Positions 20,397 to 46,876 of a DNA stretch of 64,000 nucleotides are shown one piece after another (positions within the stretch are counted from its first letter, which is position 1; every line of letters starts with the position of its first letter). This stretch comes from Takakia lepidozioides (taxonomy: Eukaryota; Plantae; Bryophyta). The stretch covers positions 38,316,001 to 38,380,000 of the forward strand of contig CM060732.1 of the NCBI GenBank assembly GCA_030704615.1, read 5' to 3'. Position numbers and translations under genes: made by a program. The notes beneath the pieces are model-generated. The model did no database searches and had not been told where the DNA came from. It saw only the letters and a list, made by a program, of their open reading frames with translations.

Positions 20397-22474
20397 GTGA
20401 AGGGCGTAGATATACAAGTTACTCCGCAGTATTTGCAACAGCTTTTTGAATTACCATCTGGTAATGTGAGCGTGGATGAACACAGGGCAAGATTGCAAGT
20501 AGGGGATCTTTTCCAAGAAACGAGTTTCTTCAGGAACCAGGGATTCACTTGTACCAAAGATCTTGACAACGCTCTCCACAATTTGCAACAACAAATTTTA
20601 GGACCTATACGACTTCGAATTCTTCAAATAGGTCATGATCTTTCGGCTGTAGGCCATTCGGCTTCAACAAAACAATGGAATTGATATCCAGGGACTATTG
20701 GTGGCCGCAGATGTGGAAACTCGTGAAAGAATTTATAAAATCTTGCGACACGTGTGCTAGAGCAAAGAGACCACGACATCGACCTTACGGCCTTCTTCAA
20801 CCATTACCCATTCCATAGTCGTCCGTGTCTATGGACTTTATTACGGACCTTCCAATTTCCAAGACCACCGATTCAATCATTGTTATTGTGGATCGTTTTA
20901 CGAAGATGACATATTTCATTCTATGTAATAAGACGGTTACCGGCGAGAAAACTGCAAGACTCTTCCTCAATAATATCTATCGCAGTCATGGACTCGCGAA
21001 GGACATCGTATCTGATCGATGACCACAGTTCATATCAAATTTCTGGAGGGGATTATTTCACATATTGGATACTAAAATCAACATCTCTACAACTAATTAT
21101 CCACAAACTGATGGTCAAACCGAACGTGTAAAACCAGATTTTGGAGCAATATCTTCGCTGTACGATAAATTATCACCAAGATAATTGGAGGGACCTTCTG
21201 CCATTGGTTGAGTTTGCCTACAACAACACTATACATTTTTCGACCAAACAAACTCCATTTTTCTCCAATTATGGCATCATCCTCGAGCAAACCCTTTCCA
21301 CATGAAGACTGTTGGAAGCCATGTTGAGGAAAACCTTGCTAATCATCTTGCTACGATTCACAAGAAGCTTACATTCTATCTCGCAGAAGCTCAAAAACAA
21401 TACAATGAGTATGCAGGTCAACATTGACAACTTCAACCCCAGTTCAAGGTCGAAGATCGTATGTGGCTTCTTCAACGGGACATACAAACCTCGCGACCAT
21501 CAATAAAGTTGGTATCAACGCCTGAGACCATTCAAAATTATTCGACAAATAAATCCGGTCAGTTTTCGGCTTGAACTCCCACGAAGTATGCGCATCCATC
21601 CAATCTTTCATGTTTCATTATTGAAGTTGTATTATCCATCGAATATTCCAAGGAGAGTTTCCGTACCACCTCCACCAATCGAAGTCAATCCGGGAATCGA
21701 GTATGAAGTCGACGAAGTCTTAGCCTCTAGCATCAAGTATAAACGTCTTGAGTATTTTGTACATTGAAAAGGCTACGACATCAGCGAACGAACGTGCGAA
21801 CCTTCATCCAACCTCGCTAATGCATCTGACAAAGTCCAAGAGTTTCATCAACAATATTCAGCTAAGCCCCGAGCTACACGTCAATAAGACGTCACAACGA
21901 TGATGTCAGCCAAGTTAGTTTCAAGGTGAAGACTCCTCATTCAGTGTATCTGATACACGCTAACGAGGGATGAGCACCCCACATCAGTGTATATAGCTAC
22001 ACTTCCAGCTCTCTTGTATCTTGTATTGGCAGCATTGAGTCATAGGAACCAGATACATTGGAGCTGTCGCTTACCCAACTACCAGATCAATCGTTCCAAC
22101 TCTCACGACCTTCAACATCACGCCGACGCTCTCGAGACGATGGGCCACCAATGCGACGGATACTTCCTCGTCTGGACCTCGTACGATGGCAAGTGGAACC
22201 TACTCGAAGTCTGATAATCATGTTGGAGGTTGAGGCAATGAAATCATATTTGAAGACAACTTCGAATATCAAAATGCTCAAATCACTGCGTGGTCCCAAG
22301 TTCAAGGTGTTCGACACTATCGATGGTTGCAGGGACCTATAAATCATTTGAGTCAAGAACGAAGAGCCGAATACTTGACAAATACCATTCGTTGGATTTT
22401 GGATTTTCTCCAACTCTAAGCAAGTCCAAGATTTTACCGCTCCTCGATGAACTTGACGCTAGAGGAAGGGGTGA
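20397..22474 (+). mobile_element. Ty3/Gypsy chromovirus, 5'-truncated internal region (integrase, chromodomain, PPT)
   Basis: Integrase [41 protein letters not shown]; chromodomain [24 protein letters not shown] (~21700-21880); PPT AGAGGAAGGGG at 22461-22471; many stops. Confidence 0.9.
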
Positions 22475-24013: not shown

Positions 24014-27000
24014 TTACTCACATGAAAAGTCGTTGTCGACCTGCTTATCTTCGGGATCGTCATCATTTCGAATTTGAATCCGATCAGTCTGTGTGCCTGA
24101 AGTGGAGCCAGACAAAAGGGGGGGGAGCACTATGTTGTAGAGGTCAGAATCACCCTCCATGCCAAAAAGGTTGAAAAAAAACCAATTCGGAAGGGAAAGA
24201 ACGAACCTGTGGACACAGAAAGATCGACCACCCGTGTAGAGCGGTGGCTGCATGACTCCAGCAGTATTTGCATGAACGCTGGGGACTTTTCATTTGCACC
24301 TCTCCAGGGAGTGTCATCTGGTCTCTTCAGAGTCTGACTGGATTGCATGAAGTTGTACAAAATGTCATCAACATGGGGCTCATAGGGGGGGTTGACGAAA
24401 CAACCCTGGTCAGAAATCTCAAAGCTGCGGATGGAGGATGGTGTCTTTGAGGTGCGAATCCTCCGCAGGCAGATCGCCTCGAACATCCTCGTCTGCCAAA
24501 GATAGCAGGTTAGTGTGGTAAACACAATCTATAGTGGAAGTGTGTACATCGGCTATTCAGAACTCAGACACAAAAAAATCATTTTTATCACGAATCGGTG
24601 ATGATCGGTGTCGATCATAACAGATTCTACTAGAGTGGAGCTGCAGAGAACATTGAAACTCATCATAAAAGCACAAGCAGAAGGGAGACGGCATACCAGC
24701 TGACCCCCGAAACCCCCTTTCACAAGGTAGAGGCTGTTCACACAATTTCATGTGCGCAAAACTTCAAACCCTGAAGACTTGAGGTATGATGCCAATGCCC
24801 GACGACTATCATTGTCACATGACTAAAAAAGCAGAAATGTCCCTGTATCAGAGAGGAAGTTATTACAGAACCCGAACACCCAACTCCAGTAGTTGTCCTC
24901 GAATTTGTTCCAGCCTGGCGTCTTGCCCTTTAGAAGAATTTCTGGCACAGCCTGGCCATCCGGGATGTCGATAATGACAATGTCGGCCGCATAAGTTTTC
25001 TGCACACCGCACACGAAGGTGAGACCTGTGCTCACCTGCAACAAACATGTTTTTTATAAGAACGAAAGCAAGAATGTTTTCAAAGAACGAGACTGAAATA
25101 CTGCCAACGAAACTTTCAGAGAAAAAGGAAAGAAACTGGAATTCTCACCAGATTGAGGAATGAGATTATATTGTCCCAGGTAGGCGATGGCACCCCAGTG
25201 TATCCTCTCTTTCGACTCTGCATCATTGACAGCCAACCCTCATTAACAATTTTCATCTCTCCTGCCGAATCAGAACGGGAAGGGTGTGGCTTGGCATCGA
25301 ACACGCACTGAACAGTGCGGGTATATCTTCCAGCAGTAAAGTCCTGCCCACTCTCCATCTCCTTTTCTTTCTCCTTCCTCTTGTCATTTTCCTTCTCTTT
25401 GGACTTGTCTTTGTCCTTTGGCTTTGCTAGTGAGATGGCTATGACATCAACAGCCTTGTCTTTTGGTTTGCGGCCCGCCTTCTTTCCCTTCTGCAGCGTT
25501 CCCTGAGCATCAGGCTCCTTGGCAGCCAATGTTGCTATGTTTCGTTGGTACTCTTCGTCAGTCAAAGGCGCCAGCGTCTCAGCGTTATTGTTCAAGTATT
25601 TCATATGCTGTTCTTGAAAGGTCGTGTGCTCCAGTGGGCAGTCAAGGTACCACCCACAGTCTCTGAAGTGAGAAGGACTCCAGTCCTTCAATATCCCTGC
25701 AGTATACATGGTTGGATCGTTTGCAGGGTCCGACCACATGTCAAGATAGTCTGGAATTCTGCTCAGGTGATTTCCTTCCATAAGCACATATTTCGTGTAC
25801 CTGAAAAAAGGAGATAAATCCCAACCCACAAAAGCGCTCAGTGAGTAAGATGCAAGTAGAACAGAATGAAAAAAACATAGATTGAAAAGGCTCTGAGAAC
25901 TGCTCCAAGGACCTTTCAAGACCACACGAATGCTCCAGATATGAATGTCGTCAACACCATTCAAAACATTCCATTCAATGATACTGTAAATACACCCTAA
26001 TCCAGGTGAATGCAAACTATCGTTTTGGAATGACACAGACATAGAAGTGAATGTCGTCAACAACATTCACTAATCAAGCCTAATTATTCCTCAAATGAAG
26101 CAAAATCACAGGATGGAAATCATAAACTCGAGTAAGGAACCCTCCAGGAAAACTCAATGCACATTCATAACGAACATATCACTGAGGACCTCACAACAAC
26201 ACTGTATGTGAATGGCGTCAATGCCATTCACAAAAATACCAACAAGGAACCAATTACTTAGTTCCCAATCCATGTAAATTCAAATTGTCGTTGTTGAATA
26301 ATACAGACACAGAAGTGAATGTCGTCAACGACATTCACTTTGGATTTCTCATAACAGAGCTTATCAAGCCTCCAGATTCCTCGCAAGAGGCAAAAACAAT
26401 GCAGAACAACTGAATGTCTGCATTGACATTCAGCAAAATGAAGTGAGGAACCCTCACTGTAACCTCTATGGACATTACAAAAATTTACATAACTCTGAGG
26501 ACCTCTCAACAACTCCGGATGTGAATGTCATCAACGCCATTCAAGGACATTATCAATTCTAATCAGGGACACTATAATTACACCCTTAGATCCTAACCAG
26601 GTGAATTCATATACTCGCTTAAGAATGACTCAGACAAATAAGTGAATGTCGTCAACGACATTCAATCTGGATCTATGATTGCAATCCTTATGAAGCCATA
26701 TTTTTTCCCAAAAAAAGCAGTAGAGTTTCAAGTATGACATTGCACCTGTATACAACTCGCATCATGGCCCACTCTCCTCCAACCTGACTGTCAAAGTCGT
26801 TGGACCGTAAAATGTTACCATCTTTGGAGAACTCCCGGAAAAAACAGTATCTCCAGGTGAGACCTCTCCACTTCCTTATGTATGCCTCCAATGACATTTG
26901 GGGAGGGGAAACAATCGAAATGTTCAGGTCCTTCAAAGTCTGATCCAGCACAATGACGGTGCGCTTTTCGAGCTGCAAATAGTATATTTGTCAGAATTGC

Positions 27001-27997
27001 AAATAAGATACTCATCACATACTGAAGAGAAGAAAACGGCATGTTTGAATACACACCTGACTCCAAAATGTAGCCTTGTGGAGCCAGTTATCAAACACCA
27101 AATCACTGATTCCTTCCACCTTTGTGCCAGGCGGTATGGTGCTCTTTGGGAACTGATTCAAGTCTTTTACTGTTTGATCTGAGTTCCATATCTCCAGCCA
27201 CCTTATTTTTGTTTGTGGGTCGACCATCGATATGGCCAGCCGGTGCAATTTCTCCTGCTGCATCTCCGGATGCACATGCTTGTCATAATGTGTTTTGATC
27301 TGCTGAAGGAACTCAGGACCAAGTCCAGGATCTACTATTCTAAGTTGCTTTCCGAAGGCGGACATCAATTTGGTTCTTCGCATTTCAAACTCCTTTTTTA
27401 TTGCAGCTTCCACACCCTTTGATGTCCTTAGTTCCTCTGGTGTAGTGCGGTAATATTCGGATTTTCCCTTCTCAGCTGCCTCTGCCAGTTCTTGCTGCAT
27501 TGATTCAAGTAGTGATTAGCTCCGAAGGGACTACAAACATGTATTCGAAAAGTAAACAGAGTACAGACTCGGGCTTACCGCATACATGTACTCCAGAAAC
27601 GCCTCTCGTGTCAAAGAATACCAAGTGCCTGCAGCTCTTCATGTTTCGCACTGCTTGATGATATTGGGTGGTAGTACTGTCCGAAAATCATCCAGCTTCA
27701 TCAGACCAATCCTCTGAATTCGGAATAGTGTGTGAACCAAGCTTGTTGTCACATGCGATTTCTCTGTCGATCTGTAAAAACATTGGAAACATTGCATTCC
27801 TTAACACTGTTTTTTGAGGATTAATAAGACACTACAGAGGGAATGAAATCTCCTGGATGACTTACTTGTTCACGTCGTGCATAGCTGTAAGAAGCCTAGC
27901 GATGTCGTTTCCAGGATCCAAAACCATTGCCTCCATAGCAACATGCTTGTCTTTGTCTTTCGCATGGTGTTTCTGAATGTATCCCATCCATGCCAGC
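24014..27997 (-). pseudogene. 3' exons of the element-borne gene ending in an N6-adenine/N4-cytosine DNA-methyltransferase-like domain (beta-class order)
   Basis: ADIVIIDIPD at the motif IV position (~24960-24990); PWRGANEKSPAFMQILLESCS (motif X-like); VVDLSVSTGS (motif I-like); LFGMEGDSDLY (motif II-like); GT-AG bounded exons; some stops and frameshifts. Confidence 0.65.
25942..26664. repeat. Array of six copies of a 22-bp palindrome TGAATGTCGT-CA-ACGACATTCA within a degenerate ~270-330-bp tandem unit
   Basis: Copies at 25942, 26048, 26209, 26316 (perfect 13-bp arms, 26313-26340), 26522 and 26643. Confidence 0.85.
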
Positions 27998-28692
27998 TGT
28001 CGTGCGCATACATATCGCTACACAACTACATCGTTGTCCAAAACCACACAACACATGTGCACACCACACACTAGTATACCACTAGTCTACCACTAGTCCA
28101 GCCACTAGTCCAACCACTAGGCTACAACTAGTCAGTCACTAGGCTGCCCACTATGGCAGTCACTAGTCCACACAATGATAAAGAAGAAGAATACAAGCAC
28201 AAGCTCATGCGAGCTCACAAAGCTGAAGCATAAACTCATGCATATATAACCTCATCACTCAAATACAAGTCAAGCCAAGTGCACCCCACGCCATGGGGAA
28301 TCCACACTACGGCGCCATAGCTAGGCGCGGTGAGGCTCAACTCGAGAAAGATGAGCCTCCCGCGCTTGCCGTGAAGATAACCACTCCAGGGCCTAAATCT
28401 GCCTTGACCCCTGGATTGACACTTGGGCCAATCCCAAATGTCAATATGTAAAAGCTAGCTATTTCCTAGCTAGTTTCACACTAGTGGTAAAATAACTTGA
28501 CAGCTGTCGTGCGCATACATATCGCTACACAACTACATCGCTGTCCAAAACCACACAACACATGTGCACACCACACACTAGTATACCACTAGTCTACCAC
28601 TAGTCCAGCCACTAGTCCAACCACTAGGCTACAACTAGTCAGTCACTAGGCTGCCACTACGCTGCCCACTATGGCAGTCACTAGTCCACACA
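27998..28692 (-). repeat. 3' LTR region of the DNMT-bearing Gypsy element, with a ~185-bp internal direct duplication
   Basis: Minus-strand PPT-like AGGGGGCGAT then TGTGTGG at 28692; ends CGACA at 27998; 27994-28176 nearly identical to 28501-28694; TATATA in the middle block. Confidence 0.7.
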
Positions 28693-28952
28693 ATCGCCCC
28701 CCTAGCTGCTGCTTAGGTCCCTCTAAGTCCAGGTAGCCACAAGATGTGATAGTGACCATAGCCTCACTAAGTCCTCCACCACTATCCCTACTACACTCAA
28801 ACTCGATAGATCAAGAGGCCGGGTGCAAGAGTTGCCCCATCGTTAGTCGCCGTCTTGCAACCTGTGAACTTGAGCTTGGGATCTCATGTATTGACTCCTA
28901 TGAGCTTGGCCTCCCATGTCTTGTTAGCTGCCTCCAGTCATGTCCACTGCCA

Positions 28953-30230
28953 CTATCCCAAGCAGTGTGGACACAACCAATCTCCGTCAGGAACCTTCTC
29001 AAGAGGTGGTGTCAAGCATCCCATATGCCAACCCCTTGAGCACCGATCACACACCAGCATGGTGGCTGCCCCTTTGGCAGACCCACAGAGCATGCACCTC
29101 AAACCTGCAGGTACCACTGCCAAGTTTGGGTCAACTCTGCCATCGACATTGGGAAGGTGACATGGCGCACAATTACGCACATGGTCTTTCCAAGTCATGC
29201 CATCCCGACCCTCTAAGATCAGGACCCCTGAGGGCAACACCTCTCGAACCCTCAGAATAACACGCCCTGCAGTAATATCCAGAGTCGTAGGAGCAGTCTG
29301 CTGCAAATAAACATAGTCACCAGGGCTAAACCTCCGAACCCCATGACGATATCCTCCACCACGTATAGTGGCATACCTCAACGTATCACGGTGCTGTGCA
29401 ATGGCAAGGTTCTCAAAAGCCATGGGCATGACTTTCTTGAACAACTCTGCACGCTGATCACATGCACGTACCCACACGTCCGGATCGTCAAGGTTAAGGA
29501 CTTGAGCAGTGTCCCTACGAATGGCTGCAGGCAAATCCGGCTCTCGGCCAAAGAGAAGGAAATATGGTGAGAAGGAGGCAAGTGATGCTTGTTTGCTGAA
29601 CCTGTAGCCCATGGCTAACCAAGGAACCTGAAGATCCCAATCTCCTAGGTGTCCCTTCTGCAAGCCATACTTGCGCAAACCCCTCTTCACCGTCTGAACA
29701 ACTCTCTCTGCTAAGCCATCGGCCTCAGGATGATCCGAGAAGTGGTGCGGTGGTCTATCAAGGCTTTATCACACAAAGCCTGAAACTCCCCCAAGAACTC
29801 TCTCCCTTGGTCCGTGAGTACCTCAGCTGGAGCACCAAATCGGCTAAGCACACGATCCAAGAATGCATACGCAGCCCCCTCACTAGCCTTGTCAGGCAAT
29901 GGAACCAACTCAATCCACTTGGAGAAGTGCTCCACCATCACCAACACATATCTGTGGTGGCGCATAGTCAGTGGCAACGGTCCTGCGAAGTCAAGACTCC
30001 ATCTGTAGCCCAATCCCATGATAGGTAAAGGATGCAACTGTGGTGTAGGGGCGTTAAATGAAGCACGCACCCTGTCACACACCATGCACCTAGCCACAAA
30101 CTGTTGCACCTCTGTATGCATACCACACCACCAATACTGCCCCTGCAGTAAACTGTGAGTGCGTCGCACTCCAAAATGCCCCAACTCCTCATGGGCATGC
30201 CGCACTAACCGTGCACGCTGTACAGTGCTG
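28953..30230 (-). CDS. Integrase with C-terminal PHD finger
   Basis: HAHEELGHFG..CMVC; SLDFAGP, VLTDQGREF; C4HC3 pattern CMLC..CDRC..H..C..WLCPHC at ~28955-29105. Confidence 0.9.
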
Positions 30231-30599
30231 GCAGGCAGTGGGTGTGTTGCTGAATGGAGGAGGAGGGGCTAGATATGAAGCACAATACTCACCCGACCAT
30301 CCTCCCACACTCGAAGTAGGTGTATCCCCTCCCACTTGAACCTCTTGGCTCGTTGCAGGATCCGATCCCTCTCCCTGGCAGTCACAATGGCTGCCGTGTC
30401 TCCCGTGCGGAGGTAGTCCAACACAGCCGAATCCTCATGTATATCTCTGGCACCACCTAGCTCATCACTAGCCTCAGGGTCCTCAGACACTCCGTCTACA
30501 GTCATCCCTGTTGTAGGTCCAATCTGACCTCCCGATGCCAAGATACACAAAAATGCAGATGCGTGCCATCCCGGCACCATCTCCTCGTCCGTCTCACCA

Positions 30600-32030
30600 T
30601 GCCACCGAGCTCCAGTGTCATCCTGCTGGCTCATGCATGGATTGCGACTCAATCCATCCGCATCCCGATTGACCAAACCCGGTCGATGCACAACCTGAAA
30701 GTCATACTCCTGGAGTATAAAGTGCCCACCGTGCAAGCTTCCCCGTAAGCTTGTCTGACTCCATCAACCACTTGAGTGGCTGGTGATCCGTGACAAGGGT
30801 GAAAAGATTGCCGTATAGATAGCACCTGAAGTGTGCCACGGCCCACACTGCAGCTAAGCACTCTCCCTCATATGAGCTGTACTTAGCCTCTGCAGCGTTG
30901 TTCGAGCGGCTAGCGTAAGCCACTACGAACTCTCTTCCCTCATCATCCACCTGTGTGAGCACCGCTCCAAGCCCCAGCATGCTCCAATCCGTATGCAGCT
31001 GAAAGGGACGCCCCCTGATAGGTCGTCTCAAGATAGGCGCCGAGGTCAACCTCGCCTTGAGCTCTTGAAAAGCTCGTTCCTGCTCATCTTCCCACTGCCA
31101 CTCCTGGTCCACCTTGGTCAGCTTGGTTAGAGCCTTTGCAATGGTACTAAATCCCTTGACAAACCGTCTATAATAGTTTGCCAACCCCATGAAAGCTCGA
31201 ACTCGGCTCACATCCGTGGGGCGTGGAATTTGTGCAATGGCCTCTACCTTAGTCTGCTGTACCCCCAATCCTCCAGGATATATCATGTGACCCAGATACT
31301 CAATCTGGTTGTGGAAAAACTTGCACTTCCCCGGATGCAACTTCAATCCGTGCGCTCTCAAGCGCTCCAATACCACCTGAAGGTGTCTCTCATGCTCCTC
31401 CATCGTAACACTAAAGATGATGATGTCATCTATGTAGCACCGAGCAAAGTCCACCCCTGCTAGAATCCTATCCATGACTCTCTGAAACTCTGCAGGAGCA
31501 TTCTTAAGCCCAAATGGTAAGAACCGCCACTGATATAGGCAATCCTTGCCGTGCTCATTGATCCCCAGAATGCCGTCTTCTGCTTGTCCGCCTCCTTGAT
31601 TGGCAACTGGTGATATCCGGATCGTAAATCCAAAGTGCTAAAGGCCTTAGCATGCCCGATGGCATCAAAGATCTCCTCTGGTGTTGGCATGGCATACTTA
31701 TCGGACTTGGTCTGACGATTTACAGGCCGGTAATCACCGCACATACGTCTCTCCGTCCAATTGCCATAGACATCCTTCTTGGCTGGCATCACTGTGGCTG
31801 AAGCATACTCTCCACCAGAGAGCTCCACCAAACCTGCCTCCCAGAGATCTTGAGTCCTCATCTGAATCAAAGACCTCTCCATGTCACTGTATCTATAGGG
31901 TCTCCGAAAGATTGGCGTGTCAGTGGCCAACTCAATACGGATCTCTTGACCCTTCAGTGCTCCCAAGTCCTTCAAACTGAAGGCAAAGCAATTCCTGTAA
32001 GCCCTCAGGAACCGCCGTATACGTCGTCTC
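30600..32030 (-). CDS. Reverse transcriptase and RNase H, frameshifted
   Basis: RMCGDYRPVN, FSTLDLRSGYHQL, PFGLKNAP, CYIDDIIIFS, YLGH, FMGLANYYRRFV, LHTDWS, VTDHQPLKWL. Confidence 0.95.
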
Positions 32031-32439
32031 TCTCCTCCGGTGACAATGGGTCCAATGTCAGGCTCCCAATTGTCCTCCGTAACTACAACCTTAAGTCCAG
32101 TGGGCTTAGAGGTAGAGGACGCGTCCCGTGGTTGCTATGCTGCAACCTCTTGAGCAGTACTCCTACCTGCTCAGTCAATGACAAGGCATCATCCTGCCCC
32201 ATCATCTCATCCTTGAGGACCTCCTCAACTCGAGAAGAATCCCCAACCTCATCCATCACAGCCGCCTTGGCTGCCAACTCCCTCTGAACTCGAGCACCTC
32301 CCACGTGTGCCATGGATGCATGCACCCCGTGGTCCTCATATGCTCGCCCCACTCACTGCCTGTACCGTCTCGGTAGGCAGAGAGACCATTGAGGGAAGTG
32401 TATTCCGCACTCTGCGTTGCTCAGCTAGAGCCAAGCTGA

Positions 32440-33400
32440 TAATCCAGGTCAAGCAATTGAGATCCATTGCTTGCCCCAACACTTGACGACGTGATGCCTC
32501 AGAAAGAGACGACACCGCCGTGGTACCAGTGGTAAAACCCATTGCCCGCTCACGCTCGTCAGCATTAGGCTCCACTAACTGCTGCAACTGAGCATCCCAC
32601 AGGAGGCCAGGTCCACTATCCCGGAAAGCATGCGATCCTGGGAAGCTGAGCAGTGTAGGTAATGCTGCTCGTGGTTGACCCACCTTGTTGACCACTGCCA
32701 AAGGCGAACGGTCATCGTGTCTCACACGTTGAGACTGCCTCCCTGTGTCCAGAATGTTATCCACTGTGAGATGTGCTGGCCGCTGCACCCCATCAAATGC
32801 ACGCTTGAGCAGTGCGGGTGGCATCATGTTAGTCCACCATAGCCGTGGACGATGAGCCCGTGACCCCACTGTAGCTGCATCTAGCAACACTGCTGACCCA
32901 AGCCACGACCGGACTTGATGCACACTGGCCATCACCCTGGCCCGAGAATCGCCCATCAGTGGCACATTCTCCAAGATGTATGCTGGAGATACAGCTTGAT
33001 GAAGCTGCAAGTGGCGCAAAACCCGCACCATCTCCCAAAACAGACCCGACCTCGAGTCTCGCAATCCATTGCCATGCCCGGCTGATGAATGCCCTTGGCA
33101 GGGCCAACCTGCCACTACCAGATCAATGGAGCCAACCCGCTCCAAATCCTGCGCCCCAGCAACGAAATGTCTGCTGGCAAGGCCTGCTGATATCCACGAA
33201 TTGCAGACACCGACAACAACTCAGGGTACCGCTGCACCAACTGAGCAACATGGCGAAGTGAAACGCGTCGTGCAGTCTCATCCCTCTCCACATACAGGTA
33301 ACGCCGAACTCGTACACCTGCCTGTAACACAGCAGCCAATCCGGTGCTGATCCCGCCAAACAAGTCCAGAAGACAAATGCCTTCATCCGGATACTGCCAC
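32440..33400 (-). CDS. C5 cytosine DNA methyltransferase domain, DNMT3-like, inside the retrotransposon polyprotein
   Basis: Motif I LLDLFGGISTG; II YVERD; IV VAGWPCQG (catalytic PC); VI ILENV; VIII RPRLWWTN; IX ERERAMGF..GTT; X RRQVLGQAM; one frameshift near 33150. Confidence 0.93.
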
Positions 33401-33779
33401 ACAATAGGTGTGGTGTCCAATGGAGACAATTGAGGTGGTCCTGGTGCAATCCCCACACTCTCCTCCTCTCCTGACGGTACAAAAGCCTCCACCCAGGCTT
33501 GTTGCACCCGTCGATCAGCATCCCGCTGCAAATCCTTGCTCGTGCCCCACAATGGAGTCTGAGCAACCATGGTAGGCAACTCCGCCATACCATACATGTC
33601 ATCCTGCTCTCCCGGAGGTGGTACATCCTCCTCAAGCAACTCTCTAGGCCAACTCACTGCCGCTGTGAATGCTGCTAGTGTCGGCATCTTGCCTCGCTGG
33701 GCAACCGCAACTCCTCCTATGAACGTCACAGGGAGCTGCACACGCCGGCCCTCCCCTGACTGCCATGCAGGCCTATAGG

Positions 33780-34095
33780 AAGCTGACTCCTCCCAAAAAT
33801 CCAGGGTGAAGCCCATGGGGTACAACACTGCCCCACCAACCAGGACATCGTATGAGACTGCGTCTGTCACAATGGCCTTGGCTCGCATCACTGAGCCATC
33901 TGTAGGGTGATCCGGCCGTAGTCTGATAGCCAACTCATGCCGTGTCATGCCCCGAGCCTGCTCCGATCCTCCAGAGACGTCTGTATCTGGAAAGGACAAG
34001 GCTCCATATCCGCCTCCGTGAGGCCCAAGCCTGCAATAGCAGCTCTGCCCAGCATCAGTGGCTGAGCTCCCGAGTCCAACAAGACCGCAGTGCCA
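33780..34095 (-). CDS. Retroviral-type aspartic protease
   Basis: VLLDSGAQPLMLG (~34050-34085) and YDVLVGGAVLYPMGFTLDF; frameshift between them. Confidence 0.8.
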
Positions 34096-34849
34096 GTGGC
34101 CGGTACCTCTTGCCTGCCGGTCCACTCAAACAGAAAATGCCATCCTGGTTGTCTAACATGACAACTCCAGGTGTCACCATGGCGCGCTCAATGGCTGGCC
34201 TAGCTGGCAGCTCCATCAACCTGGCAGCTGCAGCTTGCCATGGCGCCGCCGTGGCAGTCTTGACCCTCAAATCCGAGGATCCCTCCGGCACTACACCTCC
34301 CACTATCTCCGCAGAAGATGAAGTAACCTCCCCACTCTCACAGAGTGTAGCTGCCAGCCTGAACACCTCAGCTGGTCTTACCCCCGGCGTCGCAATCATG
34401 GTAGCCGAGAACAATGGAGCCTGGCACACAGATGTGGCCGCTCCTAGCAGCACACTAGCTGCCGTAGCCTTGGCAACACTAGGTAGTGGTGCTACCCGTG
34501 TAGCTCTCCCCAATGGCATAGTAACCTCCGCCTCGGTAACAGTCGGGCGAGAACTAGGTGCCATGGATGGCGTCGACACTGTCTCCGCCAATGTGAATGA
34601 CTGAGGAAGCCTAGCCTGACGGCTTGCCTCCCCACGCTGTGGATCCAACTCCACCTCTGCACCTCGTGGCTCAGGAACTCGTGCTGCTCCTCGAGTCACG
34701 GCTGCAGCAGACTCCACCTGCACTAGTGGTAGTGCTGCTCCACACATGAATCCCATGCCTCCCATATCTCCTCCCTCAGGAGCAGGAGGTGGACCATCCG
34801 CCTTAGAGCCGGTACCACCTGAGCTGTAGCCATGGCAGCGAGCCTCTGC

Positions 34850-36255
34850 TCTAGCTGCTGAAGCCGGTTGGCCATGCCTTGGTCAACACCCTGACCTCCG
34901 CGTCCTTGGCCACGTTGAGCTTGCCTTGGCCTGCACCTCGTGGCTGGCCACCTCGTCCTCTCTGGGCTGCTCCACCTCGCCCCCGGCCACCATTGTTCCC
35001 TTGGAACTGGCCTGGGCGCAACTCAGGATGCAAAACCATAACACTGAGCCTCTCCATGCCCGTGTTTGCCACAATGCCAACACTAAACTGTGCAGGCTGT
35101 GCATGTGCCGGCCCTTTGCCTCCCTCTGGACAATCCTTTTGACATGGGGTCCTCCACATGTCCAGCACACCACATCCGCCCGTTGTTGGCCAGCAAATGA
35201 AGGAGAGACCCCTGCATCTGAGGTCCTCTCTGCCCTTCCTGAGCTTCACTGAGCCCCCTTGTTGCCTTGAGCACGTTGAGGTAGTGGTTGGCTAGGAGCA
35301 CCACTACCCCGTGGTGTCTCCTTAGCAAATCCCACCATGACCACTCGTTCCTCCACCATGTTGAGCTCTATCCGCTCTGCAGCAAAAACACATTTGCTAA
35401 GGTGGGTGGGGCCGCTTGTAGGAGAGTTGCATCCCGCACCCTTCTCCTCAGCTCCTTGTCCAATATCCCATACCAGAATTGGACTGCCTGAGCTTCCGTA
35501 ACCCTTGGGTTACATTTATCAAGCGCCTCATGCGAGTGAAAGCCTCCCTCAAGCTCTCGGTCGGCTTCCGTTGGAACTCTTGCAAGCTCCGCAACTTCTC
35601 TGTCCTCACCCCTTGGTAGTTCCCTCTCAACTCTTCGAAAGAACTCCACAACAGGGTTGAAGGCAGGCACGGGTGCTAGTGCTGGTGCGGTAGTGGCTTG
35701 GGTGGACGTCGTAGCTATGTGTACCACCAGTCCCAATGTGGCTTGCTGAAGCTCCGGTGCAGCGGCAGGGGTGTAGCCACTGCCCTCGTGGCTCTAGTGC
35801 CCCTAGTGATGGAGACATAGTCGGGTGACCAGTACTCTCCACTCCTCGATCTCAACCTCATGCCCCCGCTGAACTCATGGTAATCATCATAGGCGGCCCC
35901 TCAAGGTGTGCTGAAACAGCCCCTTCCATGCCATGAAAGGCGTAAATAGTTGTGGATTGCGCATTGCTGCAAATCACACCAAACTATCAAACTCTTGGAT
36001 AAAATCATCCAACTCGATGGTGCCCACCGCCCAGAGTATCTTCGTGGCCCCTTGGTAGCTCCATACATCTCCCTCCATTGTGCCCAAACAATGGCAAAGA
36101 AACAACGCACCGCCGGTATGAGTCCTCCGATTCACAATCCGAATCAGAACCATTCCGTAGAAGACACCAGGAGGTGAAGGGGGCCCTAACCCGCACACCT
36201 CGTCTCGTGTACCCACTAGTATCGCTAGTGCTCGAACCGGCACTGTCCCCAGCAA
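34850..36255 (-). CDS. Gag (capsid-like plus two CCHC-type knuckles), frameshifted
   Basis: ELDDFIQEFD; KLRSLQEFQRKPTESLREAFTRMRRLI; CWTCGGPH..DCP and CWHCGKHGHGEAQC; RG-rich tail. Confidence 0.78.
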
Positions 36256-36989
36256 CTAGTGGCACCTACGTGTGACACTTCAACCGGTCCAGAAACATGT
36301 CCCTACCCCCTCTTCACAAGGTAACCGGGAGAGAACTGTTGCGGCTTATGGTTTGGAATACTAAGTTTCCTAACATAGCCACACATGTACCTGCATCCAC
36401 CACAAGCACTCCTATGGTTGGCTGGTCATCACCTCCCACCTCACCACAGAGAAACAATGATGGTCTGGCTGGTCATCACCCCAGCCTCACCATCGACAGA
36501 TGCTCATAGCGAGCTGGCCGGTGATCAAATCGGACCATACCTATGCAAGGAAAGCCCAAGCGACTCACCACACAAACTAGCACGAGGAGGCTAACAGTCA
36601 AGCATGCAGGTATGGAGGGGATCCAAACACAAGAAATCAGATCGACAACTCCCCCACACCAAAAACAACTCCACGGTGTTGCTCCTGCAAGGACACCCCA
36701 GCCCAAAACCCGGACTGACTCTTGCCTCCACCTACGGAAAGGTCTTGGCCTAATGAGAGGGTGGAAACTACGAGGAAGAGAAGCTAAAGCAATGCCTAAC
36801 CCCAGCATGCTCTCATCCCAACACTCTGCCTCTCCTCTACCCTCACTTGCATGACCATGGGAATATCATGAAGATACTCCTCAAACCGCCCTCCACGAGC
36901 TTCAAATTCGGCCTTCCAGACCACATGCCAGTCCTTAGGCAGTCCACCAGTGCCTCCACGAGTCAGCACAGGCCGTCCACAGGTCAACA

Positions 36990-38385
36990 CGGGCCACCAC
37001 AGACCAGCACAGGCCCACACAGCTCACTGGTCACAGCCGTCACAGTCCCACAGGCCACTGGGCACAGCCTGTCGCAGCCCTCATCACAGCCTCAAAGGCC
37101 TCAGGCACGGTCACAGCCCTCACAGCCCCTCACAGCCCCAAAGGCCACACGGCCTGTCACAGCCCCTCACAGCCCTCACAGCCCCAAAGGCCTCAGGCAC
37201 GGCCTGTCACAGCCCCTCACAGCCTCAAAGGCCTCACGGCCTGTCACAGCAGCCCGTCACAGCCCCAAAGGCCATGTCACAGCCCCTCACAGCCCGTCAC
37301 AGCCCCAAGGCCTCAGGCACGGCCTGTCACAGCCCCTCACAGCCCCTCACAGCCCCAAAGGCCAGGCACGGCCTGTCACAGCCCCTCACAGCCCGTGTCA
37401 CAGCCCCTCACAGCCGTCACAGCCTCATGGCACAGCCTGTCACAGGTCACATCACAGCCTGTCATCACAGCCCGTCACAGCCTCAAAGGCCTAGGCACGG
37501 CCTGTCACAGCCCTCACAGCCCGTCACAGCCCCAAAGGCCAGGGCACAGCCCCTGGGCACACAGCCCGTCACAGCCCCTCACAGCCCGTCACAGCCCAGG
37601 GCACAGGGCACAGCCTCACAGCCCTCACAGCCCGTCACAGCCCCAAAGGCAGGCACGGCCTGTCAAGCCCTCACAGCCCGTCACAGCCTCAAAGCCTCAG
37701 GCACGGCCTGTCACAGCCTCACAGCCCGTCAAAGGCCTCAGGCACGGCTGTCACAGCCCCTCAGCCCGTCACAGCCCCAAAGGCCATGGGCACGGCCTGT
37801 CACAGCCCACAGCCCACAGGCCTCAGGGCACAGCCTGTCACAACAGCCCGTCACAGCCCCAAGGCCACTGGGCACAGCCTGTCACAGCCTGTCACAGCCC
37901 ATCCCTTGTGTCACAGCCCGTCACAGCCCGTCACAGCTCCACAGGGCACAGGGCACAGCCTGTCAGCCCATCACAGCTTGCCACAGCCGCCCCACAGGCC
38001 ACTGGGCACAGCCTGTCACAGCCGTCACAGCTCGCCACAGCCTGACACAGCCGTTCACAGCCCTCACAGCCCGTCACAGCCCCAAGGCCAGCCTGTCACA
38101 GCCCCTCACAGCCGTCACAGCCTCAAAGGCCTCAGGCAGTCACAGCCCTCACAGCCCGTCACAGCCTCAAAGGCAGGCAGGCCTGTCACAGCCGTCACAC
38201 GGCCTGTCACAGCCCCTCACAGCCTCACAGGCCTCAGGCACGGCCTGTCACAGCTGTCATAGCCCGTCATAGCCCAAAGGCCATGGGCACAGCCGGTCAC
38301 AGCCCTCACAGCTCGCCACAGCCTGACACAGCCCGTCACAGCTTGCCACAGCCCGTCATAGCTTGCCACAGCCTGTCACAGCCCC
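36990..38385. repeat. ~1.4-kb minisatellite built on TCACAGCC(C/T) units in the retroelement leader
   Basis: Dense reiteration of cacagccc / gtcacagcc / aaaggcctcaggcacggcct with a loose ~50-65-bp higher-order unit. Confidence 0.95.
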
Positions 38386-38609
38386 ACACATGGCCGCTCT
38401 GGCAGTTTAGCCATTTCTCCAAGGGGTTTAGCCACGCCAAGCTAGGGTTTTGTCTCTTGGACTCTAGGCTTCTTTCCACCAAGCTATGGTGGCTGTGAGG
38501 AAATCAGCAAGGTATCCTTGCTCTTTCGGCTCCCACACACCACCATAGTAGCCCTAAGTCATGAGGTGGTTGCCACAAACCAAGCCTTCTTTCTCACTTA
38601 GCCTCCCCA

Positions 38610-38958
38610 AACACGCTTCTCCCATTTATATCCGTCAGTGACACATAAAAAACTTGTGCATCAAGTCTATATCCATGCACAAAATCACTCTCCAATTTGT
38701 TACGTTATGGGAAAGAGGTGGACGCACAACAGGCATTGATATCATCCGGCACAGAGGGATGTCCAGACGCCCTCCAGATACGAGCATGTCCCTTATAACA
38801 TCCTGAGAGTTTACCTTCTGGAATGACATGAGTTCTTTCACCTTGTCAAGGTAGTGCACTTCATATTCATCTGCTTCATCTGTATTCTCTGAGCTTTTTC
38901 CGGACTCGTCCCCATCTCCAGATCCTTTTCCCTCTGATCTTGTTGAGGTCACCATCAC
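38610..38958 (-). pseudogene. Exon with N-terminal half of a ParB/Srx-like domain, belonging to the methyltransferase-like gene
   Basis: RLDIPLCRMISMPVVRPPL, then FYVSLTD in a shifted frame; coding resumes at 27997 with LAWMGYI..MVLDP..LLTAMHDVN; the expected GxHR core is missing at the insertion junction. Confidence 0.5.
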
Positions 38959-39619
38959 TCTGTCTCAAAGAAACTCACTATGAATGGTGTGAAACAATTC
39001 AACACAATCTACACAAGCAAAGCTGATACTGCCGTATTCAAAACAAAAGCGAGAGCGATAGCGAACGGCGGTAACGACAATCACAAAAGATAACGACCTG
39101 CCGGATCGGTGTTGTGTAATGACATCTATGTGTAAATGATTGGCGGCAACGACATTCGGTATAGTTTAGGGCGGACAGTAAGTGCAGATTATTCAGATTG
39201 ACTCCACTGTGATTACCGTCGCCAGCATGAAGGACTGCTTGAAAGGCAATCAGACAGACTGTATGATCTGAACAACGATGATTGACGGTATGCCGACCCT
39301 CACTCTCTCTTCAAACACATAGGTACATAAATCTCATGAGGAGAATCGAATGGCGTTAACGACGCTCGCAATTCAGTAGTTCCTGCTAAAGAAGGGAAGA
39401 GGAAGGACTCCTTGAAAGGCAATCAGATAGACTGTATGATCTGAACAACAGTGAATGACTGTACCGATAGTCACCCACTCATTGTGCGGTAAACCCTTAG
39501 CAGAGGAGTAGAAAGCAAATCACATTTGTGATGGTCGGGTAGCGACAATCCCTGTCTGGGACATTCCACTCAATCTCTACGCATATCTTCAACAATGAAA
39601 TGTAAGTTAGATAAAACTT

Positions 39620-39920: not shown

Positions 39921-40773
39921 GCTCTCTTGCTCTGCGTCTCTTTCTAAGGGAAGTAAAATAAAGAGACTTTCTTCTCTTTCGTATTGTAGAAGGAACCCTC
40001 TCCAGCTTGACTACCACTCTCTCTCTAAGCGCGAAAAGTAGAAAAACGCAGTGACTCCCGATTTCTTGCGGGATTGCCTGCGTTCTTGCGTTTCTCTAGA
40101 AGCATCGGATTTCCTCTCGCGTGACCGTTACACATAGTCGTTCCCTTATTAGTGCACATGCCAGCAATTGGTGTACAGCTGTTCGTATTCAGTTATGGAT
40201 GTCTGACGTGTGTCGCCCAAAATAAACGGCGTGTTCTTTATTAGAACGGTTTCAATATTTAAAAATAACAGCGAATCCCAGAAATCTTGGCGCACAATTT
40301 TACACAAATAAATGTAAATGAACGAGAGTTTGATGACAAATCTTGGAATATCATACACGGTCATCCTTGTTAGCCAAACCCCACATTCGTTTCACATTTG
40401 GAACTTTCCAGGTGCGCATGATCATTGGTAGTAGTATAAAGATACATTTACTTAATCTGCAATCCCATCCTCAGATCCTGTGGCATGCTTCCAGGAAGTC
40501 GGCTTTGTTATTGGGTTTATTGATGAGGTTCTGGTTAACGGTTTAACAGCTGCCGACATTGCTCCTAGGGATACTCTGACCACGGGCCCACAAGAAAAGT
40601 AATTAAAATGGACGGCTGCATATCTGGAAAGAATAACATAATATGCATAGTCGTTGTCTGAGCTTCCTCCGCCATATTCTCTGCTCATTCTTCAACTGTG
40701 TTCTGGAGACATCAGTAAACCGATTTACTCTAGATTTGCGATAGCAAGGTACAAACGTACGCGAGGAAGGAAG

Positions 40774-42351
40774 ATGGCTTCCTCTGAAGCGGAGTTCTTC
40801 TCTGACGACAAACTAGTGCCGTTCTCCCAGGAAGTCCTTGACAATGGATTTGCAATTGTTCTGGAACATGTCTTGGCTACCCGTTTTCAGCTGCAGAATG
40901 GTTCCATCTTTTTGGAGAAAGAGGTGTACGATCGTAAAGGGAAGTTGTTGAAATACTCTTTCCAAAACCGTGATGAGACGGCTCATATCAGCCAGTGGAG
41001 AGTGCGTCCTGGTCGATACAGAGTACTTGGAGAGCCTCGGCGAAAGTCCCTTGGGTCATATGTGACGCCCAGGACTGCTGCTTCGGTCGTTGAAGACAAG
41101 AGGGAGGTGGTGGTGAAAAAAGAACAGATGTCCTCCACTCCAATCGTTGAGCTTTCGGATTCTTCCGATGATGACATAAGTGAAATTCCAAATCCAGTCC
41201 TTCCTACTGTGGTTGGAGAAGCTGATGAAGAAGAGATTTGTAGTGTCATTCCAAAATTGCGGGCTGAAGAAGAGATTCGGCTCCTGTAAGAGGAAATTGA
41301 ACACTCCACCTGGTTCGGATTCAGATTCCCACAGGGCAGACCGTGATAACTCCTCGAAGCCTCGTGTTCCCCTGCATGACAGCTCCATGTCCGGAACCTC
41401 CATTGTGGAGGAACCTCCAACATGACGGCAAGCTCCAGCATCAAATAGTGCCACTGAAATGGTGCAGGAGAGAAACAACCCCCTTGATGTGCTTGAGTCC
41501 GCATGCCCCGACCACGTTTGGCACATAGAACGCACAAGTGTAGGGTCTCGTGTGAAATGTACAGCGATCAGGGCAACTAATTTCGAGAAGTGCACTTCAT
41601 CTATATCCAGAGGTGGTGCCCGAACTCCTGCTCCAACTTTCACGGGCTTGATGCGTCCATACGGTCAACCAGAAGCCAAGAACCACAAGTTCTGGTTCTG
41701 CGCAGATAATTGTGCCAGATGTGTGTATGGAACTGTGCGTCCTTCCGTAGTGATGAAGCCATCCTCCTCAACCGTTTGGCCCGTGAAGGTGGGAACACAT
41801 CTCAGCTTTCAGGAGATTGAAATGCTGGAGGAGGCAGGTTTTTTTCCTTGCGATACAACCCCAACTCCATGCATGTGCTACTAATCTGCGTCCTCCCGGG
41901 TCCCCCGGCAAATCCTGACTTGTGGCCAACCAAACGAGATGGAAAGCTCGTTCGGCGTTTCCCTCCAACCGCTGAACACTTTGGGAAAGTGGAGTCCGCA
42001 AGAATGCTCCAAGCTCGTGTTGGAAACACCACGGAAGTACCCGATCCAGGATATGGTCGGGTATTCACAATCATCACTTCCACATCTGCTGTTCATGACA
42101 TGACCTACGACATCACGGTTTCCAATTTCCCCAATTGCACATGTTCTGATTTTGTGAATATGCTATCAACCAGTTTGGGCAAGAAAGGTAAATTCATACC
42201 CTGCAAACATTTGTATTTCATATTTTTGAAGAGGATGGTTTGCGATCCCAAACGTGACAACTTCATTCACCAGGCCACTATGAGTTTCAACGAGGTCGAT
42301 ACTCTTTTGCAGCGGGATACAAACATGGGTAGCATCAACTATGCAATGTGA
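40774..42351 (+). CDS. Element-borne SWIM zinc-finger protein with upstream Cys-rich domain (split into three ORFs)
   Basis: YDITVSNFPNCTCSDF..IPCKHLYFIF (CxC..CxH); upstream WHI..KC..KC..FWFC..C..C..WPV; ORFs 40654-41289, 41459-41884, 41848-42351. Confidence 0.75.
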
Positions 42352-45456: not shown

Positions 45457-45826
45457 TAGTCACAAATGAGTGAGCTTCTTGATTTAATTGCGTGCCTTCT
45501 GATAAAATGCACTTTTTTGTAAATGTAGTGGTAGACCTGAGGTATCAAGTTATATCCTCCCATGGAGGTAGTTGCATAGCGTATCGACCTAATATTCTGT
45601 AAATCCAGAAGTAGGTAGCGGCATCCCATAGTTAGTGGTAGTTTCTGTTAGAAGGCCGGGGCAGTTGAAGTTTACGGAAAATGGGTTTGGTGGGCAGTAG
45701 GAATGGCTGTCTCCGGGGTTTTACCTTCCACTCCTTATTTGATCCATGGGCTAGTTGTGGGATTGTAGTTATATCTAGCGAGTTTCTCTCACTCTTCGTG
45801 CTATCTCCTTCCTTCCCTTAGACATC

Positions 45827-46876
45827 ATGGACATGTGTCGGGTAAGCGTTTTGGGTCTTCTCTTGCTCACCATTTTGCAACAGACTTTAAGGGTGGAGGT
45901 TGTGCATCTTGAGCTCGGGCCGGAGATTCCGGAGCTCAATCAAGCTGGGGTGGATGTGGCAAATATCGTGAACAATGACTGGAAATTATTGCCTGTCTTA
46001 GGCATGTGCAATTTCTCAGCCCGAATGTCAAATGCGCATCCAATTAATGCGCTCGGGGTTGCGGGCACATTGTACACCTTCTTCGACTACTTGACATTTG
46101 ACTGTACATCTGAAGTTCGGCGCGAAGAGTTGATGTGCGAAACACTGGCTTCATCGTTCACCGCATGCCGCGATTTGGCTGTCAACATGCACGACGACAA
46201 CCTCCACAGTTGGTCCACGTGTGAGGATTTCAATTTCCGCGTTGGCTACCTTTGGATACCCACCAAGACGGCGCAAGATCAAACCACCACCATGACTACA
46301 TCCGTTGTCGCAACCATGGAAGAGCTTGCCAGCCTGATTATGGACACTGACTTGACAAATCTTCATCTCCCGGCTCCTAAAGCGACGAACAAAGTCGGCT
46401 TTCGCGATCCTTTTGGCTGCAATTTCAAGTACTCCAATGTGTTTCCTATTGTGTACGACGGGTTGCACAACACGCTCATAGGAGGGGAGTACATCATGTC
46501 GTCAAACGACAAGTATAGCCTGATGATGCAGCTTGATTGCAACCTCGTGCTTTACAAGAGGGGTCCGACTGGGCAATTTGCATGGAATGGGTTGTGGGCG
46601 ACAATGTCCAATATCTCCGATGGGTTTCCGCACCGATGCACCATGGAATTGCAGCCGAACGGCAACCTGGTTGTCAAAGATGACTCTGGCTTCCCCCGTT
46701 GGGCGAGCAGAACAACGACATCAAACCTTTATCAAGTATCACTTACGGTCCAACATGATGGAAATTTGGTGGTTGCCAACATGCAGAGCGGAGGCATGGT
46801 GTGGTCTACAAACACGATTGTACCACCACCTCCTCCCCTGTTTCAGATTCCACCCATCCCACCTCCTCAGAAATAA
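45827..46876 (+). CDS. Secreted protein with C-terminal bulb-type (GNA-related) mannose-binding lectin domain
   Basis: 349-aa single ORF; hydrophobic signal-like N-terminus; QLDCNLVLY, QPNGNLVV, QHDGNLVV repeats and VWSTNT; Pro-rich tail. Confidence 0.85.
   Translation: MDMCRVSVLGLLLLTILQQTLRVEVVHLELGPEIPELNQAGVDVANIVNNDWKLLPVLGMCNFSARMSNAHPINALGVAGTLYTFFDYLTFDCTSEVRREELMCETLASSFTACRDLAVNMHDDNLHSWSTCEDFNFRVGYLWIPTKTAQDQTTTMTTSVVATMEELASLIMDTDLTNLHLPAPKATNKVGFRDPFGCNFKYSNVFPIVYDGLHNTLIGGEYIMSSNDKYSLMMQLDCNLVLYKRGPTGQFAWNGLWATMSNISDGFPHRCTMELQPNGNLVVKDDSGFPRWASRTTTSNLYQVSLTVQHDGNLVVANMQSGGMVWSTNTIVPPPPPLFQIPPIPPPQK

Follow-up and report, generated by a model that had tools for sequence, protein, structure and literature searches.

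A DNMT3-like methyltransferase in bryophyte Ty3/Gypsy retrotransposons, encoded ahead of a predicted leaky stop codon in elements with split terminal repeats

The minus strand of the window, a stretch of 64,000 nucleotides from the Takakia lepidozioides assembly, carries a Ty3/Gypsy element with Gag, protease, a DNMT3-like C5 methyltransferase, reverse transcriptase (RT), RNase H, a DDE integrase and a PHD finger (Table 1), and we regard its family identity and the architecture described here as almost certain. Gypsy elements that bear a DNMT are a known kind, which is here extended to bryophytes, and the association is real and conserved in land plants. What appears to be new is a layout that predicts stop codon readthrough, a self-priming site, and an internal att joint combined with split repeats. 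An earlier note on the same DNA had pointed out the methyltransferase; beyond it, we found an in-frame TAG (32135–32137), the split terminal repeats and the self-priming site. Our reading of the whole, which we hold to be moderately probable, is that the DNMT3 would be made at the Gag level through a leaky UAG, that it would methylate the cDNA, and that the element would insert by an internal joint, which would probably belong to a two-LTR circle.

Table 1. Features of the element in the window; coordinates count from the first nucleotide of the window.
Feature	Position	Strand	Basis
Long 5′ leader; cut near 38616; A1 absent	36079..38616	minus	TRF; no upstream A match; contig loose ends
Gag, zinc knuckles, aspartic protease; upstream part of ORF1; several frame breaks	33382..36078	minus	tblastn; queries were natural ORF1 proteins (Marchantia, Calypogeia-like)
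DNMT3-like C5 cytosine methyltransferase domain, last of ORF1	32408..33381	minus	PF00145, motif positions; Marchantia match; profile and fold of a relative
Predicted leaky stop, TAG CAA CCA (UAG-CAR-YYA), between ORF1 and ORF2	32129..32137	minus	position; clade conservation
ORF2: RT, RNase H, H2C2-DDE integrase, PHD; frame breaks	28953..32128	minus	Pfam RVT_1, RT_RNaseH, Integrase_H2C2, rve, PHD
C-terminal PHD finger of ORF2	28962-29096	minus	Pfam PHD
Polypurine tract (PPT), directly before B1	28695..28706	minus	sequence; relatives with G-run at the same place
Repeat B1, 3′ end CGACA	28505..28694	minus	comparison with B2
Internal att-like joint CGACA-GC-TGTCA (B1 end, 2-bp spacer, A start)	28498..28509	minus	same form in relatives
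Repeat A2, begins TGTCA; contains predicted self-primer 28341-28356	28177..28502	minus	homologous layout in relatives
Repeat B2, right terminus, ends CA	27998..28176	minus	self-comparison; 21 contigs depart at a B end into differing flanks

The assignment to Ty3/Gypsy, already made in the earlier note, was borne out by the RT–integrase ORF of an intact relative (L030), whose best match in the PDB is Ty3 Gag-Pol (E 4e-98; next non-Ty3 match, 2e-47). The order Gag, protease, RT, RNase H and integrase was found both in the window, by Pfam and tblastn, and in the intact relative. The protease motif LLDSGAQ lies at 34062–34082 and the RT motif YIDD at 31425–31436 (both minus strand), and L030 matches Pfam Asp_protease_2. 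At the C-terminus of the integrase, Pfam detects a PHD finger and not a chromodomain in the window as well as in L030, and this finger is nearest to those of CHD4, KDM5B/KDM5A and PHF12, with PHF21A among the similar readers. Binding to unmodified H3 is known for some of these PHD readers (KDM5 PHD1, CHD4, PHF21A). Judged from its sequence, the element is Ty3/Gypsy by protein phylogeny and a non-canonical LTR element by structure.

The methyltransferase domain shows what the earlier note had described, namely all main C5 methyltransferase motifs, including the catalytic PC and ENV, in non-permuted order between protease and RT: LDLFGG (33352–33369), YVERD (33280–33294), GWPCQ (33095–33109), ENV (32963–32971), HRPRLWWTN (32828–32854), ERAMGF (32534–32551) and RRQVLGQAMD (32462–32491), all on the minus strand. 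The domain matches PF00145 (E 8.8e-13; 48.8 bits at a cut-off of 22). One frame break near 33153–33157 divides it into two pieces without internal stops, which are 82% and 74% identical to Marchantia Mp4g09160. A profile of 28 family domains finds human DNMT3A first in the PDB (9e-23), followed by DNMT3C/B, whereas DRM scores 2.5e-10 or weaker and M.HhaI 4e-8; the AlphaFold model of the intact L030 domain has a pLDDT of 92.7, and the rows listed in a Foldseek search with this model are all DNMT3A/B/C (TM 0.65–0.71). The catalytic Cys is present in 28 of the 28 aligned rows, as is the EN of motif VI, in the usual motif numbering. The similarity ranking of sequences and models thus supports the claim that the domain is DNMT3-like rather than DRM-like.

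Homologs of the domain form 235 near-length clusters and 96 longer ones. Named matches come from Marchantia polymorpha, M. paleacea, Calypogeia fissa, Riccia sorocarpa, Sphagnum troendelagicum and S. fallax, and further from Closterium, one EukProt record and one record with a bacterial MAG label (P0042), whose domain is 94% identical to that of L030 and which is likely a mis-binned eukaryotic fragment. Among the matches listed, none is named as a vascular plant or as Klebsormidium, and no relatives of the element were found in viral contigs. One M. polymorpha cluster of 18 members has, among the 15 listed, at least five uninterrupted ORF1 (Gag–protease–DNMT) proteins of 1278–1281 aa. Clustering at 50% gave 266 proteins at E ≤ 1e-30, and within the best 150 of these clusters 74 of the 75 matches of at least 800 aa carry a retroelement domain, the commonest full layout having the methyltransferase directly before the integrase. 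Three layouts can be distinguished: type I, that of the window, is Gag–protease–DNMT–stop–RT; type II is protease–DNMT–RT without the stop; and type III is RT–RNase H–DNMT–integrase–PHD. In a large DNMT tree, a quick tree without outgroup, type I is a group of 61 rows (SH-aLRT 98), among them the window and every bryophyte row of the tree that bears a name; several 'II' and 'III' labels on Marchantia and Sphagnum rows there belong to predicted gene models in which the stop is bridged or skipped. A large group with the DNMT between RNase H and integrase (P0164–P0209) extends several hundred residues beyond the PHD finger, and this tail gave no Pfam match in the members scanned; one protein of 1053 aa (P0210) combines a PHD finger, a PCIF1-like domain and a DNMT3-like domain and is possibly a dual-methyltransferase element.

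For 24 elements, the starred splits of the RT tree agree with those of the DNMT tree, which points to one old capture followed by joint inheritance. Several dN/dS comparisons were saturated, and in the Sphagnum-like pairs some residues within the RT ranges were misaligned; in the five unsaturated cross-lineage pairs (the N-terminal part of the window domain against L001 and against L006, L030/L031, L047/L042 and L047/L046) the DNMT dN/dS is 0.09–0.15, and in one more pair, from the second clade, it is 0.25. The linker has values of 0.37 and 0.54, and pairs within one burst have 0.55–0.78, which reflects decay after insertion. These values support purifying selection on the methyltransferase domain. 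The Sphagnum-like loci (L003, L012, L038 and others) share mostly 64–75% Gag and DNMT identity with Marchantia Mp4g09160 despite the moss–liverwort split. We do not claim the horizontal transfer between mosses and liverworts that this identity suggests, as liverwort monophyly was not rejected (p-AU 0.053).

Three findings would have undone the proposal of the earlier note: a domain restricted to this copy, neutral evolution, or an algal contaminant. The window copy is indeed broken, and related elements are present in algae (Closterium, Klebsormidium). However, the hundreds of homologs, the low dN/dS across lineages, the congruent RT and DNMT trees, the location of close relatives on Marchantia chromosome-scale records and the genes that flank the element refute both the chance capture of a host DNMT3 by one dead copy and contamination, which have practically no probability left. 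The flanking genes are an uninterrupted 952-codon PPR ORF (6987–9845, minus), which ends after the E motif without a DYW domain match, and a VARLMGL/DUF4378 gene. We take both to be land-plant gene types, in agreement with the land-plant setting assumed before; the named homologs of the flanking genes are liverwort proteins, and a flanking exon has five matches only, the named ones being liverworts at 26–28%.

The element is highly repeated in the host organism: each of two runs has more than 100,000 contigs placed on it, and a low-coverage assembly of 1.75 Mb has 628, the contig depth values not being taken as copy numbers. Among the RNA runs on record none contains the stretch, an outcome that is neutral as to expression, and a run that may be RNA was left out of the argument on expression. 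The copy in the window looks young, since B1 and B2 differ by one mismatch in 179 aligned bases, besides an 11-bp indel. Its breaks consist of indels of one or two bases, positions where many contigs from this organism have a different sequence; of the 12 breaks listed, 9 touch runs of at least three identical bases (17% expected), so the frameshifts are possibly errors of the long-read assembly rather than decay. Repeat A1 is absent upstream in the window (best local score 22–26, shuffled maximum 27), and together with the loose ends of 12 contigs at 38616 this suggests a deletion of the 5′ end along with flanking DNA. The 5′ leader contains a 1.3-kb tandem array of 10-bp units (37110–38384; TRF), and the many contigs that also diverge at 36594 suggest leader variants among subfamilies. 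The element has a broken, repeated gene or transposon around it, where contig depth is high too: the stretches to its left and right (38597–38964 and 24133–27999, minus) read like two halves of one ORF. The part at 24133–24408 contains NPPY and EKS...LLES...VVDLSVSTGS, presumably reminiscent of an amino-methyltransferase, and the flanking gene fragments gave no Pfam or NCBIfam match. Elsewhere in the window we noted ORFs with a weak SWIM finger (40651–42351; E 0.022), probably a transposon remnant, a second, unrelated decayed integrase fragment (20657–21130, plus; 26% identity to L030 ORF2, E 4e-13), and an ORF with a bulb-type lectin domain below the Pfam cut-off (45779–46876, plus; E 8e-6).

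The position of the in-frame stop was compared in 80 metagenome loci and the window; these loci are not independent, with at least eight pairs being the same site and most loci stemming from two bursts, and short-read assemblies can collapse repeats. The end of the DNMT and the start of the RT are both spanned by 54 of them, 29 of type I and 25 of type II. A stop followed by CAR in the RT frame is present in 28 of the 29 type I loci versus 2 of the 25 type II loci, and these two are one frameshifted copy assembled twice; in the 29th type I locus the stop is in the frame of the DNMT and is followed by a deletion. The type I contexts are TAG-CAA-CCC (20 loci), TAA-CAA-CCC (3), TAG-CAG-TTA (2) and, once each, TAG-CAA-CCT, TAG-CAA-CTA and TAG-CAA-CCA, the last being that of the window. 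The exact CAR-YYA is found in the window, L030, L031 and L037, and the other 24 loci, one Sphagnum-like group, have CAA-CCY, three of them with TAA. The stop with its CAR-YY context is kept across four lineages with dissimilar linkers. The intact L030 consists of a 1369-codon ORF, a single TAG CAG TTA and a 1047-codon ORF in the same frame, and 17 of the 96 longer homolog clusters are Gag–protease–DNMT proteins of at least 1200 aa that end 74–165 aa past the domain. A conserved stop was sought in the second clade (type II) and not found; the stops there are at scattered positions. UAG-CAR-YYA is described as the readthrough consensus of the tobacco mosaic virus (TMV) type in the accessible text of one source (PMC3159437), and another reports 6–10% readthrough of the TMV context in stable Arabidopsis lines (PMC2754532).

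From this conservation, we consider it very probable that the UAG is read through into RT–integrase–PHD. In type I, the methyltransferase is, on sequence evidence, the last domain of a Gag–protease ORF that is closed by a conserved stop, and it would therefore, like the protease, be made at the Gag level and not at the Pol level. The earlier note had assumed that the enzyme is packaged together with Pol; for this clade the assumption has to be modified, as the domain is not simply a part of Pol. Gag-level supply is not required for the family as a whole, given the second clade without the stop and the third layout with the DNMT between RNase H and integrase.

The bases after A1 in the relatives are not a TGG site of the tRNA type. 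In 18 of 20 loci the best complement of the 16-mer after A1 lies at the homologous site within A, 26–28 nt past a TATA box. This pairing is found in four sequence variants, which are those of the two clades, of L030 (15 nt) and of the family of the host (16 nt), and contigs of three runs from two samples leave the window at an A end with letters complementary to 28341–28356, although the window's own A has no clear TATA at that place. The predicted self-priming folds have z scores of −2.7 and −3.6. The pattern matches that of Tf1 as far as the consulted part of the source describes it (PMC7175516), and with the complementarity observed and its use predicted, we have high confidence in a Tf1-like self-priming.

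The ends of the element are equally unusual. Two complete identical LTRs, of which the right one would start with TG directly after the PPT, are not what we found: the relatives have the layout A1–internal–PPT–B1–A2–B2 with TG...CA termini, with A only on the left and with B followed by A–B after the PPT, and the window holds the right-hand part of this layout. All 22 left ends with flank begin with the TG of A and have no B upstream. The 25 right ends comprise 13 with B–A–B, 8 in which B is followed by flank, and 4 with a B–A that is cut or altered; L055 and L077 are one insertion site in both forms (B–A–B and B only), and B-only ends can thus arise by B1/B2 recombination or assembly collapse. 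The B/A joint reads CGACA-NN-TGTCA or a close variant in 16 of the 17 loci that hold B then A, and the 4-bp target duplication is exact at 7 of 10 two-ended loci (5 of 8 distinct sites), agrees in three of four bases at two and is absent at one. No Pfam match to a tyrosine recombinase was obtained in the two long ORFs of L030, the other seven ORFs of which have at most 169 aa. In type II, the distance from B1 to the B2 of the same copy (0.065) is smaller than that to the B2 of other copies (0.091); in type I, the same test is without signal (0.072 vs 0.075). Within L055, L048 and L052, B1 and B2 share private changes, and the A2/B2 joints are shortened in L066 and L068 and precise in most others. 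Going by these comparisons, B2 seems to be remade from B1.

Priming after A, the PPT before B and the split ends together predict that integration makes use of an internal att site, with a two-LTR circle as the likely substrate. In the replication cycle that we propose, ribosomes would make Gag–protease–DNMT, and a minority of them would pass UAG-CAR-YYN into RT–RNase H–integrase–PHD. The protease would then free the methyltransferase inside the particle, where, at a readthrough near 6–10%, it would outnumber RT and integrase about tenfold. The 5′ end of the RNA, which lies in repeat A 26–28 nt past the TATA box, would pair with the bases after A1 and prime the minus strand, and together with the PPT before B1, standard reverse transcription would give a linear B–A–internal–B–A whose ends are not TG...CA; the repeat as seen by the RT would be B–A, with the TG...CA att ends lying inside. 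Joining of the two ends would create the A2/B2 joint, and the integrase would cut the internal CA-NN-TG joint, so that the integrated form would correspond to the end-joined molecule opened at its left internal joint and thereby circularly permuted. The expected product, TG-A–internal–B–A–B-CA with a 4-bp target duplication, has the form that is observed; alternatively, the joining may take place after strand transfer as a repair of two free ends. Finally, the cDNA would arrive methylated, pre-marking the new copy, and the PHD finger would likely tether integration to unmodified H3 tails. We consider integration through the internal att site to be probable, and its occurrence via a pre-formed circle to be a plausible variant about which we are somewhat doubtful; the two att joints of a circle should also give an A–B–A–internal–B form, which is found at none of the 22 left ends. 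A high copy number of the enzyme in the particle favours cDNA as its substrate, and a catalytic role on cDNA is the reading we marginally prefer; such methylation may serve self-silencing or camouflage, as the earlier note proposed.

Each part of this cycle has a competitor. Expression of pol by splicing or re-initiation, with the TAG as a 3′ splice acceptor or an ordinary stop, would have a precedent in Ogre elements, where pol is expressed by splicing. In the Sphagnum-like group, the TAG follows a T-rich run, which is acceptor-like, and a Met occurs two codons after the TAG; this Met right after the stop is confined to that group. Some Marchantia and Sphagnum gene models (P0129, P0161) also join DNMT to RT and look like predicted models. 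However, the frame is open on either side of a single in-frame stop, CAR-YY is kept in four lineages with dissimilar linkers, and both T-run and Met are absent in the window, L037 and L030/L031, so that we regard splicing or re-initiation as quite improbable in comparison with readthrough. For the ends, a rather unlikely alternative is an A–internal–B–A–B element that does without cDNA end joining, B2 being copied from a transcript that runs through B2 and the integrase only trimming the internal left joint. Such copying would explain why A–B–A–internal–B is missing and why the A2/B2 joints are mostly precise, and copying has been proposed for split repeats of the DIRS/Ngaro type. The order A1–B1–A2–B2 is standard in tyrosine-recombinase elements (PMC6681497, in the part consulted). 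Yet self-priming right after A1 and a subsequent jump to A2 would skip B2, and the private changes shared by B1 and B2 within copies, together with the single difference in 179 bases in the window, argue against the copying and for the end joining.

The substrate of the enzyme could also be a different one. The methyltransferase may act mainly on host chromatin, together with integrase and PHD or in trans, on the insertion site or on other copies, and thereby limit the spread of its own element. The similarity of the PHD finger to the KDM5 PHD1, CHD4 and PHF21A readers parallels the ADD domain of animal DNMT3, the layout with the domain directly before the integrase, the commonest full one as mentioned above, fits this proposal, and host DNMT3 is reported to methylate non-CG sites in Marchantia sperm in the consulted part of a preprint (10.1101/2021.02.12.428880). 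However, the type I domain precedes the stop, on the Gag side, and most of its copies would therefore be unlinked to integrase and PHD; we consider action on chromatin unlikely compared with action on cDNA. In its boldest form, our proposal is that a Ty3 lineage of green plants follows a replication cycle different from that of other LTR elements: it primes itself, methylates its cDNA before insertion with a DNMT3 that stop readthrough supplies to the particle at Gag stoichiometry, has moved its att site into the middle of the repeat, and uses the end-joined two-LTR circle as the true substrate of integration; the conjunction of all these features is tentative, and we would rather doubt than assert it.

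The closest known system is KnitGypsy-Dnmt3 of Klebsormidium nitens (de Mendoza et al., 2018), which we compared by its description. The consulted parts of that paper (PMC5890265) describe a DNMT in Pol with Ka/Ks <0.2, an acquisition in the K. nitens lineage, and a domain without activity in yeast, a result called inconclusive by the authors. Both systems share the Gypsy domains, a non-permuted DNMT3-like domain under purifying selection, and DIRS-like repeats, as the DNMT3 in a Gypsy polyprotein and the A–B–A–B split repeats of its Fig. 4 legend (PMC5890265) are also present here. In contrast, KnitGypsy-Dnmt3 is algal, and its description as consulted (PMC5890265) mentions neither a stop that is read through nor self-priming, an att joint, a target duplication or a PHD finger; Marchantia and Sphagnum do not occur in three supplementary files of the same study. 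Tf1/Sushi and the plant Tcn1 likewise lack a tRNA primer site, and the 5′ end of their RNA can pair with the bases that follow the 5′ repeat (PMC7175516, PMC6317226, accessible text), but they have ordinary LTRs, and Tcn1 is a chromovirus, whereas the elements described here have a PHD-ended integrase, split repeats and a DNMT. The repeat order A1–internal–B1–A2–B2 is shared with Ngaro/PAT/VIPER and SymbioDIRS-Dnmt3 (PMC6681497, PMC5890265), the latter of which also carries a DNMT3, one that methylates CG in yeast according to the consulted text (PMC5890265). Unlike these tyrosine-recombinase retrotransposons, our elements lack a recombinase ORF and encode a DDE integrase; they end in TG...CA and are flanked by target duplications of 4 bp. 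As in TMV-type readthrough (PMC3159437, PMC2754532, in the parts consulted) and in MuLV gag-pol, an in-frame UAG would gate the polymerase. The stop here comes after protease and DNMT, and not after Gag. In the circle junctions of IS3/IS30-type elements and in the old retroviral circle-junction model, a DDE enzyme acts on abutted inverted ends a few bases apart; the joint here lies inside the reverse-transcribed repeat, and the likeness can serve as a lead only.

Later papers, in their accessible parts, mention 'streptophytes' only (PMC12344493; bioRxiv 10.64898/2026.05.21.726589), PHD, methyltransferase and Marchantia are not mentioned in the main text of Neumann et al. (2019), and a PHD-bearing Gypsy element with near-normal LTRs is known from Chlamydomonas in a source consulted in part. 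No bryophyte case is contained in the consulted parts of 10.1101/2021.11.30.470311, PMC11982613, PMC9033089, 10.1101/2021.02.12.428880 and PMC6681497, and a literature search that left aside most subscription papers, Repbase and bioRxiv supplements gave nothing on a bryophyte DNMT-bearing Gypsy element, on its readthrough, or on an integrase combined with split repeats.

The retrotransposon-borne DNMT3 has so far been described from algae and dinoflagellates, in which its function is hard to test. With uninterrupted Gag–protease–DNMT ORFs in Marchantia polymorpha, a genetic model, the role of the enzyme becomes testable. Annotated 'DNA methyltransferase' or hypothetical genes of Marchantia, Calypogeia and Sphagnum include ORFs of these elements, which may confound DNMT inventories. 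From the readthrough layout one would expect the enzyme to be abundant in the particle, and the split repeats with their target duplications predict a DDE integrase that would act on an internal joint, possibly that of a circle, a form generally considered a dead end in the case of LTR elements.
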